From an uncultured Chlamydiales bacterium (GTDB lineage: Bacteria > Chlamydiota > Chlamydiia > Chlamydiales > JAAKFR01), in assembly GCA_963699155.1 (NCBI GenBank), contig OY969414.1, forward strand, positions 395,757 through 459,756: a stretch of 64,000 nucleotides of DNA, read 5' to 3'. Shown here one piece after another: positions 14,597 through 50,396 of this stretch. Position 1 is the first letter of the stretch, and the number at the start of each line of letters is the position of its first letter. Under the pieces are notes generated by a model. It worked only from the letters and a program-made list of their open reading frames with translations, did not search any database and was not told where the DNA came from. Made by a program: the position numbers and the translations under genes.

Positions 14597-14779
14597 AAGG
14601 GGAGGGCCCCTTGTTGGCGCTTACAGCACCAACTCGCCCCCCTCCCCTTAAACCCCTCTCCCGCCCATTTTTGGGAGAGATTTGTCGAGATGGAAGTGAT
14701 TTGCCCAAGATACAATCATCAAACTTAAATGGTAGATTAGAGATCTGTCGGGCGGATCTGTCACTAGCGTGTCAGATCC
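14597..14779. repeat. Structured repeat unit A, copy 1
   Basis: aaggggagggcccc...cgcccccctcccc, ctctccc/gggagag, ttgcccaaga and agatctgtcgggcggatctgtcac..gtgtcagatcc are shared with 49476-49611 and with both arms of 49622-50020. Confidence 0.9.
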
Positions 14780-14791
14780 CCCTGTGCCTCG

Positions 14792-14868
14792 GTTCACAAG
14801 TAAACTTGTGAACTCTCGGACAACCCATCAAAAACCCTCCACTGGAGGCTTTTTGAGGTACCTTGTCC
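14792..14868. repeat. Two hairpins filling the variable slot between unit A and unit B
   Basis: gttcacaagt-aa-acttgtgaac is a perfect 10-bp inverted repeat; second hairpin ggacaa..tcaaaaa.cctcc-act-ggagg.tttttga..ttgtcc. Confidence 0.75.
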
Positions 14869-14872
14869 CTTT

Positions 14873-15098
14873 GAGCCGCATCTTGCTTTGCCATATCGCT
14901 TCCTCGCTGGGCGCCTACGGCGCGGTCCCGCACTGCCTGGTGCTGGTTAAACCCTGAGGCGGTGAAAGTATCTCAGGTTACATCTTGCGTGAGTAATGCC
15001 TCGCCACTCCTGCCTGCGAACGGGGGTCTATGCACAGCACTACCCTCCACGCCTTCGGCTCAGCTCCGGAAGCGATCTGGCTTTGCAATCTGCGGCCC
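14873..15098. repeat. Structured repeat unit B, copy 1 (about 225 nt; candidate ncRNA or ssDNA element)
   Basis: Near-identical to 50035-50257. Closing stem gagccgcatcttgctttgccatatcgcttcc / ggaagcgatctggctttgcaatctgcggccc; internal cTACGg and cTTCGg hairpins. Confidence 0.9.
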
Positions 15099-15223
15099 AT
15101 CTTTGCGGAAATTGCAAAGGATGCGGCTCCTATTATAAAAAAACCTTGGCGATGCGATTTTAATAAAAATGAGATTATTTGTTGAATTTTTTCAATGAAG
15201 CCAATTAGAATTCGTTTCTGATT

Positions 15224-16363
15224 ATGTATAAAATTGCTTTTAAAATGCTTTCAGGGGACCGCGCGAAGTATTTGCTTTTAATTTCAGCGCTCTCCTTTTC
15301 TGTTCTTTTAATGACGCATCAATGCTCTGTCTTTTTTGGTTTGCTTAGGTGGAGTACAGCAACCATTCGGAATATGCATGTTCCCTTATGGGTTGTTGAT
15401 CCTTATGTTGAGCAGCCGGGTGAAATCTTGCCTCTCTTGCATACCGATCTTTCCCGTGTGCGCTCAATCGATGGAGTCAAATGGGCAGTCCCTCTTTTCT
15501 TTTCTATTCAACAAGCTCGATTGGATGATGGGCCGTTTAAGTCGATTCAACTCATGGGCTTAGACACAGCTACTCTCATAGGATCCCCTTCTCAAATAGT
15601 TGCAGGCTCCTTAGAGGAGATCTGGAACGATGGGGCCGTCATTATTGATGAGCTAGCTGTTAAACACTTTAGTAAAAATCGTGAGAAACCGATTGGGGTG
15701 GGAGATCGCTTTGATATCAACGATCACGAAATGAAAATCGTCGGGATTTGCAAAGTAGACCCCTCTTTTTTTGGGTATCCCTATGTCTATACAACCTTTG
15801 ATCGGGCAGTTCAGATTACTCCCCAAAAACGAAAGAATTTAGCTTTTATTTTGGCCGCTCCTAAAAATGAAAATATGATTGTGGACACTGCTCAGGAAAT
15901 AGAAAAAGTCACAGGACTTAAGGCCTATACGGAGGATCAGTTTTTTTGGAGCACTATCAATTGGGTTTTTAAAAATACGGGGATTCCTTTTTCATTCAGT
16001 ATCACGATTATCATGGGTTTCTTAGTCGGAGTTGCAGTTTCAGGTCAGACATTTTATTCGTTTGTATTAGAGAATTTAAAACATCTCGGCGCTCTGAAAG
16101 CCATGGGAGCAAGTACAGCTCTTATTTGTAAAATGGTTGTGCTGCAAGCTTTTTTAGTGGGATTTATCGGCTATGGCATCGGAATAGGAATTACTTCCAT
16201 TTTTGGTCATATGGCTGTGGGGACCAGAAGTTTTCCCTTTTTTATGCCTTATGAAATTTTGCTTATTCCTTTTCTTGCTGTATTTAGTATCTGTCTATTT
16301 TCAGCCTTGCTAGGGATTAACCGCATTCGAAAGCTCGATGCTGCTGAGGTTTTCCGTGGATAA
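15224..16363 (+). CDS. ABC exporter permease (FtsX/MacB/DevC-like)
   Basis: N-terminal TM, large periplasmic loop, GALKAMGAS motif and 3 C-terminal TMs. Confidence 0.85.
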   Translation: MYKIAFKMLSGDRAKYLLLISALSFSVLLMTHQCSVFFGLLRWSTATIRNMHVPLWVVDPYVEQPGEILPLLHTDLSRVRSIDGVKWAVPLFFSIQQARLDDGPFKSIQLMGLDTATLIGSPSQIVAGSLEEIWNDGAVIIDELAVKHFSKNREKPIGVGDRFDINDHEMKIVGICKVDPSFFGYPYVYTTFDRAVQITPQKRKNLAFILAAPKNENMIVDTAQEIEKVTGLKAYTEDQFFWSTINWVFKNTGIPFSFSITIIMGFLVGVAVSGQTFYSFVLENLKHLGALKAMGASTALICKMVVLQAFLVGFIGYGIGIGITSIFGHMAVGTRSFPFFMPYEILLIPFLAVFSICLFSALLGINRIRKLDAAEVFRG

Positions 16364-17033
16364 GAGAGCTGATATCTCAGTTGTTGGAGTCTCCAAAAGC
16401 TTTAAGCAAGGTGGTGAGGTCCAGCAGGTCCTTCGTGATGTTCACTTTCATGCCCATTGTGGCGAACTCATCCTGATTGTGGGGCCTTCAGGAAGTGGGA
16501 AAACAACGCTCTTAAGTGCCATAGCAGGGACATTGAGTGTCGAAAAAGGAAAAATCCGACTTTTTGATTTCGAGCTTCACCAAAAATCCCCGCATGAAAT
16601 TGTCTCTTTTCGTCGTAAAAATGTGGGGTTTATCTTTCAGCAGTATCACCTGATTCCTACACTCACCTGTGGTGAAAATGTTGGGATTCCCTTAATGCTC
16701 AATGGCTGCCCCTACGAGAAGGCGCTGGAGCTTGCCCGCCAAGGTTTAGAGGAAGTTGGTTTAGAACAAAAATTCCATTCCTTGCCCAAAAACCTGTCAG
16801 GAGGTCAACAGCAAAGAGTTGCAATCGCTAGAGCGCTTATTCATAAACCTTCTTTAATCATTTGCGATGAACCTACGGCCTCTCTGGATGCCGATTCAGG
16901 CATCAAGATTATGGATTTGATTCGATTGCATGTCAAAATACCAGGGCGCATTGTAATAATTGTGACGCACGATGATCGTATTTTCAAATACGCAGATCGA
17001 ATTGAAAAAATGGATGATGGTCGGATGATATGA
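16356..17033 (+). CDS. ABC exporter ATP-binding subunit (LolD/DevA-like)
   Basis: GPSGSGKTT, LSGGQQQRVAIARAL, CDEPT and VTHD motifs; probable GTG start at 16356 overlapping the permease 3' end. Confidence 0.9.
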   Translation: MDKRADISVVGVSKSFKQGGEVQQVLRDVHFHAHCGELILIVGPSGSGKTTLLSAIAGTLSVEKGKIRLFDFELHQKSPHEIVSFRRKNVGFIFQQYHLIPTLTCGENVGIPLMLNGCPYEKALELARQGLEEVGLEQKFHSLPKNLSGGQQQRVAIARALIHKPSLIICDEPTASLDADSGIKIMDLIRLHVKIPGRIVIIVTHDDRIFKYADRIEKMDDGRMI

Positions 17034-49393: not shown

Positions 49394-49475
49394 ACAAAAT
49401 TCGTGCCCTTGCTCAACTTGCTCGAATGTATTGCCAGGCTTCGCCTCTCCGCTACTACCATCTCGCAGTGATTCT

Positions 49476-49611
49476 AAGGGGAGGGCCCCTCTCCCACCCA
49501 TTTTGGGAGAGGTTTAGCGAAGTGGCAGTTATTTGCCCAAGACATTACTATTGATCTTAAAGGGCTTCTCATAGATCTGTCGGGCGGATCTGTCACTTGC
49601 GTGTCAGATCC
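49476..49611. repeat. Structured repeat unit A, copy 2 (internal deletion of first loop)
   Basis: Collinear with 14597-14779 but lacks the segment between two cccct direct repeats. Confidence 0.85.
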
Positions 49612-49621
49612 CCCTGCGACC

Positions 49622-50020
49622 TAATGCCGTCAAGTTAAGGAAGTCTGCAGTTATTATAAGGGGAGGGCCCCTCGCATCACTACGTTCGCTCGCCCCCCTC
49701 CCCTTAAACCCCTCTCCCGCCCATGTTTGGGAGAGATTTTCCAGAATGGAGTCTAAGCAACCAAGACAGTACAATCGATCTTAAAAAGCAGCTTATATAC
49801 ATGTCGGGTGGGTTGCGTCACTTCGTGTCAGCAACCGCCCGACAGATAAATGAGAAGCCATTTAGGATCCATGTTGTGTCTTGGCAAATATCCTCGCGGA
49901 GTCGACAGATCTCTCCCAAAAATGGGTGGGGGAGGGGTTAAAAGGGGAGGGGGGCGAGCGCAAAGCGCGAGGGGCCCTCCCCTTATAATAACTGCGGATT
50001 TCCTTAACTTGACGGTATTA
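49622..50020. mobile_element. 399-bp non-autonomous element (MITE) with IS4-like termini and whole-length palindromy
   Basis: Left end taatgccgtcaagttaaggaagtctgcagttattataagggg; right end is its reverse complement with 3 mismatches. Flanked by 10-bp direct repeat ccctgcgacc (49612-49621 and 50021-50030). Confidence 0.88.
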
Positions 50021-50034
50021 CCCTGCGACCCTTT

Positions 50035-50257
50035 GAGCCGCATCTTGCTTTGCCATATCGCTTCCTCGCTGGGCGCCTACGGCGCGGTCCCGCACTTTCT
50101 GGTGCTGGTTAAACCCTGAGGCGGTGAAAGTATCTCAGGTTACATCTTGCGTGAGTAATGCCTCGCCATTCCTGCCTGCGAACGGGGGGCTGTACACAGT
50201 ACTAGCCCCCACGCTTCGCTCAGCTCCGGAAGCGATCTGGCTTTGCAATCTGCGGCC
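50035..50257. repeat. Structured repeat unit B, copy 2
   Basis: Near-identical to 14873-15097, same orientation. Confidence 0.9.
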
Positions 50258-50339
50258 GCGGACTACTCGCGCACTCATCCCCCACCGTGACTTACGTCTC
50301 ATGGTGGGGCCCCTTTCGTGTCAGCTCGTAGACATACTT

Positions 50340-50396
50340 GGGGGAGGTCCCCTCGCTTCGCTCGCCCACCTCCCCCATGCCCCCTCCCCCACCCAT
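50340..50396. repeat. Partial, diverged unit A head
   Basis: gggggaggt-cccctcgcttcgctcgccc-acctccccc...cccctcccccacccat. Confidence 0.75.

Follow-up and report, generated by a model that had tools for sequence, protein, structure and literature searches.

The stretch of DNA examined here, 64,000 nucleotides from an uncultured Chlamydiales bacterium (contig OY969414.1, positions 395,757 to 459,756; hereafter the window), carries two loci at which non-coding, hairpin-forming units recur in the same order and orientation. As established by reading the sequence and by repeat finding within the window, locus 1 and locus 2 share a unit A (116 nt at 80% identity), a junction and a unit B (186 nt at 95% identity). 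Unit B is itself a composite of a 5' arm (Bl), a 111-nt segment (Bc), an apical hairpin (P) and a 3' arm (Br). The A-tail hairpin which closes unit A, an invariant CCCTGCGACC, the unit-B helix and a further hairpin, x2, form a core of about 240 nt, designated U. The slot between units A and B is occupied by a two-hairpin element, S, in locus 1 and by a MITE (miniature inverted-repeat transposable element) named MITE-X in locus 2 (Table 1). Both loci probably belong to a mosaic, spread over the whole genome, in which selfish, hairpin-forming modules without coding capacity are nested in one another.

Two composite loci and a genome-wide set of modules

A preliminary description of the window had claimed the common order of units at both loci and the construction of MITE-X from two inverted, diverged copies of unit A, and both claims were borne out, the former by sequence reading and the repeat search, the latter by repeat comparison within the window. 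The slot, described as variable, does hold two hairpins in one case and a 399-bp MITE in the other, but the hairpin slot S is itself a conserved repeat. Likewise, the reported lack of an adjacent transposase gene holds throughout the window, and a partner insertion sequence (IS) for the MITE is present elsewhere in the genome. The fragment x1 of locus 1 may be read as a truncated opposed copy, and the genome-wide module search returned no further copies of it.

Table 1. Features of the two repeat loci, in coordinates of the window.
Feature	Position	Strand	Remarks
A-head, G-rich hairpin (GGGGAGGG...CCCCTCCCC) with inner mini-hairpin	14597-14652	+	Locus 1
A-core, least conserved module	14653-14736	+	Locus 1; 54-59% identity among copies
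A-tail hairpin, left end of core U (GTCGGG, variable stem, CCCCTG)	14737-14784	+	Locus 1
S element type 1, two-hairpin slot inserted at the A-tail/Bl junction	14785-14866	+	Locus 1
S hairpin 1	14792-14811	+	Locus 1
S hairpin 2, terminator-like	14836-14848	+	Locus 1; T-runs on both strands
Unit B, whole	14867-15097	+	Locus 1
Bl, 5' arm of the long unit-B helix	14867-14911	+	Helices 1-3 of the covarying structure
Bc, 111-nt insert in unit B	14912-15022	+	Locus 1
P apical hairpin and Br (3' arm of the unit-B helix)	15023-15097	+	Locus 1
x1, 38-nt inverted fragment resembling the start of Bl	15098-15135	-	Direct sequence reading
CTCGCAG, usual right end of the core element	49462-49468		Precedes unit A of locus 2
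Unit A, whole, head deleted	49477-49611	+	Locus 2
Unit A with internal deletion of head hairpin and A-core	49477-49568	+	Locus 2
A-tail hairpin	49569-49611	+	Locus 2
Left 10-bp target-site duplication CCCTGCGACC	49612-49621		Locus 2
MITE-X, 399 bp, 18-bp IS4-type ends TAATGCCGTCAAGTTAAG, two inverted unit-A arms	49622-50020		Locus 2
A-tail palindrome where the MITE-X arms meet	49803-49843		
Right 10-bp target-site duplication CCCTGCGACC	50021-50030		Locus 2
Unit B, whole	50031-50257	+	Locus 2
Bl	50031-50073	+	Locus 2
Bc, 111 nt	50074-50184	+	97% identical to the locus-1 copy
P hairpin and Br	50185-50257	+	Locus 2
x2 hairpin (CCCCACC...GGTGGGG) and CCCCTTTCGTGTC...TCG(C/T)AG, right end of the core	50258-50330	+	Helices 6-7
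Head-like G-rich hairpin	50331-50400	+	The "head only" unit A copy of the preliminary description

The window lies within a single contig of 2,399,326 bp with 47.5% G+C. Comparison of the units with the whole genome by BLAST yielded 50 merged intervals (16,060 nt in total), and a finer module library gave 180 non-overlapping matches at about 47 loci, a recurrence far in excess of chance. Since modules recur at that many places, the possibility that the copies in the window are the only ones, which the preliminary description had named as one that would undo its reading, no longer stands. The module loci lie between long open reading frames (ORFs); 3,242 of the 10,321 module bases fall in predicted ORFs of at least 100 aa, and the ORFs concerned are short (100-175 aa), with the exception of a single 329-aa frame spanning a tandem array. 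Over the whole genome 7.4% of the sequence is repeated (176,985 nt in 285 intervals). Repeat clusters of at least 900 nt include families of 15, 11, 5, 4, 3, 3 and 3 copies, most of which are IS elements (IS3-, IS481-, IS21- and IS4-type, judged by ORF content), and one three-copy cluster encodes a leucine-rich-repeat protein. A genome this rich in repeats might be suspected of false, repeat-induced joins, and three soil-metagenome DNA runs from one study (shares of 0.05-0.08), with no RNA run listed beside them, contained repeat pieces of 94-347 nt, none of them spanning a locus. Nevertheless, an assembly artefact is extremely improbable, given that the genome is a single 2.4-Mb contig, that the flanks of both loci are unique and syntenic with those of congeners, that the MITE is surrounded by an exact duplication and that a short metagenome contig independently displays the A-S-B order.

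In an alignment of 14 composites, from which any IS or MITE had been excised by script, the recurrent order is A-head, A-core, A-tail, S, Bl, Bc (optional), P, Br, x2 and a head-like hairpin. Mean pairwise identity amounts to 98% for S (11 copies compared), 91% for Bl (12), 86% for P and Br together (7), 83% for the A-tail (14), about 70% for x2 (13) and 54-56% for A-core and A-head (14 and 10 copies, respectively). The difference in identity between S and its neighbors indicates that S is a separate repeat, of younger age or under stronger constraint than the modules around it, and the values for S, Bl, A-tail and A-core/A-head fit a late and repeated arrival of S. Locus 1 has a close twin at 321727-322227 of the genome, where a 501-nt A-S-B copy of window 14597-15097 is found 88 kb away in inverted orientation. 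Because this twin is 99% identical to locus 1, compared with 73-90% for all other copies, it would point to the composite as a whole having been duplicated or gene-converted recently.

The S element is 82 nt long and takes the form of hairpin 1, CTCTCGGACAACCCATCA, hairpin 2 and GAGGTACCTTGTC. An exact-pattern search found 20 copies in this genome, namely the 11 of type 1, located inside composites, seven of type 2 and two of type 3; four of the six type-2 copies with flanks examined lie between convergent gene ends. Among types and species both hairpins change in sequence, the linkers remain fixed and the stems covary, and hairpin 2 scored as terminator-like on both strands. The S family has seven copies in one congener and none in 399 other genomes of the order. 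Two further repeats of the window touch on S. At 38655-38845, a 191-nt element with inverted ends of about 30 nt has GCCTTCGGCTATGAA in its core in common with the tail of S type 3; this stretch is itself repeated (depth 6 in the genome), and the genome holds many other repeated intervals of 165-190 nt. At 59590-59850, two tandem 83-nt units (89% identical) and an inverted partial copy carry a motif, AATT(A/C)AACGCAAAG, that resembles the sequence following S type-2 copies.

Bc is present in 52 copies at 37 loci, forms tandem arrays of 9, 4, 3, 2 and 2 units and occurs alone at many loci. Unit-B copies without Bc are found in this genome and are the rule in other genomes, hence Bc is regarded as an insertion. 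The proposal that Bc is a structured RNA was dropped on account of its weak consensus fold (-4.6 and -6.7 kcal/mol on the two strands); covariation in Bc is restricted to the first mini-hairpin. In a congener, unit B or the x2 hairpin harbors inserted, diverged Bc-like units of about 100 nt that start with GCGCTACGCGC. These units were missed by BLAST with a Bc copy of the window, and their presence implies that the Bc family is older than the species. The 329-aa open frame mentioned above spans the nine-unit Bc array at 739749-740738 of the genome; it stays open because 111 nt correspond to 37 codons and is probably spurious.

Mobile elements and their choice of target

MITE-X displays terminal inverted repeats with 54-nt arms that are 94% complementary, and the 10-bp duplication CCCTGCGACC on both of its sides is exact. 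The element occurs as four full copies, in addition to partial and 120-bp forms, and other copies carry the duplications CCCAGCGACC and CCCTGCTTCC. Its internal ORFs of 72 and 71 aa, as well as an 89-aa ORF overlapping the right end, are all far shorter than the 347-aa transposase ORF, the longest open frame, of IS-X, an element with the same ends and the same length of duplication, as expected of an autonomous partner. IS-X is present in three copies of 1368 bp (one of them at 941601-942860 of the genome) that differ at 0-2 positions over 1368 nt, and its terminal 18-26 bases, including the 18-bp end TAATGCCGTCAAGTTAAG, are those of MITE-X. The transposase domain PF01609 was detected at five places in the genome, three of which are IS-X and none of which lies in the window. 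The IS-X ORF scored 133.9 bits on the IS4 family model NF033592 (cut-off 115) and 70.7 bits on PF01609 (cut-off 23), and no close homologue was found in 300 genomes of the order, the best match reaching 35% identity. The duplications made by IS-X and MITE-X conform to the 10-bp consensus CCC(T/A/C)GC(G/T)(A/T)CC; in one of the three IS-X copies they do not match each other. The MITE-X of the window and the copy at 1229303-1229701 of the genome are identical at 399 of 399 positions yet are bordered by different duplications (CCCTGCGACC and CCCAGCGACC, respectively), and therefore represent separate recent insertions. Ends close to the IS-X terminus (e.g. TAATGCCGTCAATTTAAG) are also found at genome positions 193732, 193856 and 2084010, with different inner sequence, which suggests a second, related family of elements.

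The insertion sites of these elements show a bias towards the repeats. A total of 19 ends of the IS-X/MITE-X type in the genome correspond to 11 independent insertion sites, and 10 of these are positioned directly 3' of an A-tail hairpin, the eleventh being a 120-bp mini-form within a target-like 10-mer. The other flank of the insertions is Bl or S, and IS-X is found in both orientations. A pattern search for the A-tail gave 31 matches, 20 of which are true copies and 11 unrelated. Four of the true copies are MITE centers, and the remaining 16, all external, have their junctions filled without exception: by S directly (nine), by MITE-X (three), by IS-X (three) or by half a MITE (one), with S lying behind the insertion at two of the junctions occupied by an IS or MITE. 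In other genomes the A-tail and Bl are contiguous. The 20 true copies in this genome comprise five compensatory stem variants.

A second insertion sequence, IS-Y, scored 260.9 bits on the IS481 model NF033577 (cut-off 224), contains rve, HTH and LZ_Tnp_IS481 domains and is located in head-hairpin loops in all four of its copies, two in A-heads and two in x2 heads. Duplications of 7 bp accompany two of the four, and in a congener an IS-Y homologue lies at the center of inverted B-x2 arms of 370 nt. Target choice is thus seen for two IS families and one MITE. In these respects the preliminary description is supported: it had proposed an IS4-ended MITE, for which the shared 18-bp ends and the three IS-X copies support a partner of the IS4 family acting in trans, and a targeting by such elements of their own repeat family, which is upheld for IS-X and MITE-X by the 10 of 11 sites abutting an A-tail hairpin. 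Its wider proposal of mobilization in trans holds for MITE-X through IS-X, but nothing was found that would mobilize units A and B, S or Bc.

The repeats could also be passive products of segmental duplication, gene conversion and recombination of a few old copies, with the IS and the MITE as the only mobile components. The inverted 99% twin of locus 1 would agree with such an origin, as would the failure to find a mobilizer for U, S and Bc and the lack of matching duplications in two of the four IS-Y copies and one of the three IS-X copies, as is expected after recombination. In contrast, the flanks are unrelated at 47 dispersed loci, the ends of the modules are sharp and recurrent, S copies 98% alike are embedded in A and B copies that are 54-91% alike, and the same core is found in seven families, in part as near-identical bursts. 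On this evidence we judge a passive origin to be improbable.

The core U: structure, covariation and spread

In order to assess the structure of the core, 12 Bc-free sequences from at least eight genomes were aligned over B-x2 (75% mean column identity). RNAalifold predicted 45 pairs at -40.6 kcal/mol, with 93.5% of the cells paired. Compensatory double changes are seen in 27 of the 45 pairs, compared with 12.0 +/- 2.0 pairs changed on both sides in 500 shuffles, none of which reached 27, and with 3-9 in controls slid by 1-3 columns. The single-stranded stretches CCCTGCGACC, TTGAGCC, GGCTGC and CCCCTTTCGTGTC are invariant. Likewise, the A-tail hairpin is fixed between GTCGGG and CCC(T/A/C)GCGAC with at least 10 different stems, and all 36 distinct versions, from at least 10 genomes, fold in the same register (median z-score -1.9 relative to mononucleotide shuffles; 16 of 36 below -2). 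Because compensatory substitutions keep the helices, pairing, whether as single-stranded DNA or as RNA, matters to U.

By DNA searches, Bl, Br, x2 and the A-tail were located in one congener as well as in a different family. A scan with a 19-base pattern of the A-tail/Bl junction over public genome contigs of 185,579 species gave 20 stretches, 10 of which carry the element, nine in records with chlamydial titles, some of them metagenome bins of Rhabdochlamydiaceae and Rhabdochlamydia, and one in a record that bears the title Verrucomicrobia; the other 10, from unrelated phyla, lack the modules, and about 17 chance matches were expected by our own estimate. A covariance model of the core, R1, has 18 matches in this genome, one of them at locus 2 (genome 445901-446080, window 50145-50324), and at E <= 1e-5 it matched 11 of 151 sampled genomes of the order, in seven families. 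Three genomes hold at least 17, at least 17 and at least 15 copies, at most 17 candidates having been scored per genome. At least 11 near-identical core copies of one genome reside inside a 410-bp MITE with TACTCTGTAACAGAAAAT inverted ends and CTAG flanks; this MITE, of another chlamydial family, is often found beside or inside another small repeat. In three other genomes the core forms inverted pairs, GACATGTCGGG ... CCCGACATGTC, with TA on both sides, and most inverted pairs are flanked by TA at both ends, a dinucleotide which is palindromic and so may belong to the inverted end. The core is accordingly an old, patchy, high-copy, MITE-like element with its pairing under selection, a new element that covaries and is widely spread.

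The same data bear on the question of whether the core is a gene family for a structured non-coding RNA, either regulatory or belonging to a mobile element, that MITEs and ISs merely carry or hit. The covariation of 27 of 45 pairs across families and the invariance of the single-stranded stretches are what such a family would display, a TATAGA-like motif and AT-rich DNA lie upstream of many copies, and the same core is found in different carriers. On the given strand, 27 G-U cells stand against 6 A-C cells, but the reverse complement has an equally good or better fold (-53.4 versus -40.6 kcal/mol) and a consensus scan gave no promoter-like site. Furthermore, the core is scattered unevenly (11 of 151 genomes), its copy number is high and differs among genomes, copies are arranged in inverted pairs and no Rfam family was matched. 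At the gathering score the whole window contains a tRNA at 34555-34628 as its single Rfam match, so that the search suggested in the preliminary description returned no family for either locus, and E-value scans of both loci and seven related loci produced sub-threshold matches only, the strongest to long-hairpin microRNA-precursor models. An RNA gene family is therefore considered rather unlikely. We hold it to be unlikely as well that the core is a module of structured RNA or single-stranded DNA selected across at least seven families and outside every described RNA family, one that several mobile elements of Chlamydiales, unrelated to each other, either carry or dock at; such a module could serve as a shared platform for recombination or targeting, or as an RNA in mobility or in the control of neighboring genes.

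Several observations weigh against the reading of the loci as a mosaic of nested selfish modules. Long-term covariation across families exceeds what a MITE needs and would equally fit a functional RNA, and the TA flanks, as they appear in the sequence, may be inseparable from the inverted end. Locus 1 and its twin may owe their likeness to duplication or gene conversion and not to transposition. All three IS-X copies carry an in-frame TAG after codon 72, whereas the frames of homologues elsewhere are open over 434-451 aa. The transposase of IS-X might be made by read-through, as a split protein or from an internal start, and IS-X and MITE-X look recently active despite the TAG. No transposase that would move U, S or Bc was found. 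This genome has no match to Y1/RAYT (PF01797), the search for which had been called for in the preliminary description, and none to TnpB (PF07282), both results separating it from IS200/IS605 systems and the former also from the repetitive extragenic palindromic (REP) type; an IS110 transposase is likewise missing from this genome. Y1 genes are present in three of five relatives tested, and none of the five Y1 loci in these three is flanked by the core or its end motif. The Y1 transposase was consequently rejected as mobilizer of the core, as was IS630, since no IS630 model match above the cut-off was obtained in five genomes carrying U. Finally, the notion that Bc always sits in palindrome loops had to be dropped: in a duplex-energy test, same-locus flanks averaged -24.1 kcal/mol versus -21.2 kcal/mol for mismatched flanks, and values below the 5th percentile were reached at 7 of 37 loci.

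With these reservations, a layered origin of the selfish mosaic is likely. The oldest layer is the core U, a MITE-like element that spread through several chlamydial families, mostly as TA-flanked inverted pairs. The position just 3' of the A-tail hairpin is an insertion hot spot in this genome, filled by S, by the active IS-X or by its derivative MITE-X, moved in trans by IS-X, and IS-Y inserts in the loop of the G-rich head hairpin. Bc has separately invaded unit B and other G-rich sites, and it amplifies in tandem. We infer that the transposases read the hairpin or its flank; S and Bc would be mobile, and U is presumably selfish, with no function for the host. The nested family of non-autonomous elements put forward in the preliminary description is thus retained as regards its non-coding, nested and multi-copy nature, but not as a single family, in view of two unrelated IS families and no fewer than five module types that are independent of one another.

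Neighboring genes, known systems and significance

According to Pfam, locus 1 neighbors a UvrD helicase gene and a four-gene efflux operon (MacB/FtsX, ABC, HlyD and OEP), and locus 2 is accompanied by genes for an unassigned 469-aa protein, a GNAT acetyltransferase and an MFS transporter. From the start of the helicase gene to the next conserved gene the interval measures 4.9 kb here, including the repeats and the efflux operon; in three congeners it is about 0.06-1.5 kb and holds small content of other kinds. Where the locus-2 spacer has the repeats and the GNAT gene, that of one congener has two unrelated ORFs. Each of the two sites is therefore variable. One might suppose that a gene-capture system introduced the efflux operon and the GNAT gene, using the loci for attachment or recombination, as the operon and the locus-1 repeats are both missing at the site in three congeners, the operon has a lower G+C content (43%, compared with 47-51% around it) and other genes fill the locus-2 spacer of a congener. 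Against this, no recombinase is encoded nearby, the far end of the operon lacks a repeat, a minority of the 47 loci was examined for accessory neighbors, and each congener site has a different small content, like any variable spacer. Gene capture is accordingly very improbable, and the possible hotspot suggested in the preliminary description has the differing content in three congeners as its support, with no evident mechanism and nothing that links the repeats to gene gain as its cause. Elsewhere in the window, positions 1763-2596 contain six to seven direct repeats, diverged and spaced by 126-141 and 261-264 nt, that have the look of a repeated protein domain rather than of a part of this system.

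The literature on chlamydial MITEs, on REPs in chlamydia-like organisms and on Rhabdochlamydia ISs and repeats gave no description of such elements, in keeping with the earlier remark that it was not recognized as a described chlamydial repeat and with the lack of an Rfam match. The excerpt available of one chlamydial paper (PMC9723776) discusses transposase abundance and no repeats of this kind. Mosaics of REPs and bacterial interspersed mosaic elements (BIMEs) are, in the accessible part of Tobes and Pareja (2006, PMC1525189), transposition hot spots for IS1397, ISKpn1, ISPpu9/ISPpu10, ISPa11 and ISPsy8. As far as that excerpt goes, the present system resembles them in having intergenic palindromic repeats in mosaics that act as hot spots, with specific ISs at fixed hairpin positions. 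In contrast to the 20-40 nt of a REP, the core measures about 240 nt and composites reach 900 nt, copies number in the tens rather than the hundreds, there is no RAYT in this genome and the host phylum is Chlamydiota. Indeed, the size and number typical of REPs and REPINs (20-40 nt, more than 100 copies) are not those of the present units (48-240 nt, 11-52 copies). The described REP-targeting ISs reportedly belong to the IS3 and IS110 families, whereas those found here are of the IS4 and IS481 families.

REPINs are reportedly REP doublets that form hairpins and depend on a single-copy RAYT (a view attributed to Bertels and Rainey, 2011). The inverted pairs in long hairpins, the co-change of paired positions and the non-autonomous mobile behavior are similar to what is said of them; unlike REPINs, the present arms are about 240 nt long with several helices, RAYT is absent here and the core does not flank any Y1 gene of the relatives. 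BOX elements of Streptococcus pneumoniae consist of boxA, a variable number of boxB and boxC, and are likewise modular, non-coding and structured with a variable middle, a counterpart here being Bc in 0 to 9 tandem copies. The two are unrelated in sequence, and the slot described here is filled by S, MITE-X or IS-X, with Bc also standing alone. The Correia/NEMIS elements of Neisseria, ERIC and RUP are hairpin-forming MITEs, short gene-less spacer elements with inverted ends and TA or short duplications that are mobilized in trans. MITE-X has all the properties of a MITE, whereas the core U, for which no transposase was found, differs from these elements in its conservation with covariation across families and in riding as cargo inside other MITEs. 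IS231A, of the IS4 family, prefers the ends of Tn4430 as target, and so has in common with IS-X its family, a duplication of 10-12 bp and a strongly preferred, defined site at the end of another mobile element; target and host are different, and the site here follows a hairpin of variable stem. The system adds a rich case, hitherto undescribed, to a known kind of bacterial selfish DNA.

Discussions of environmental chlamydiae usually treat their genomes as streamlined. The present genome, of which 7.4% is repeated, displays a layered selfish-DNA economy, in which one repeat gives fixed docking points to others. The repeats may serve as strain-typing markers, and they are a warning for the assembly of chlamydial metagenome bins. 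They also offer a natural case of strict hairpin-adjacent target choice by transposases of the IS4 and IS481 families, which can be tested in vitro, together with a structured element of about 240 nt that covaries across chlamydial families and is absent from Rfam. If the core in fact functions as an RNA or as a recombination site in shared use, it would represent a new family.

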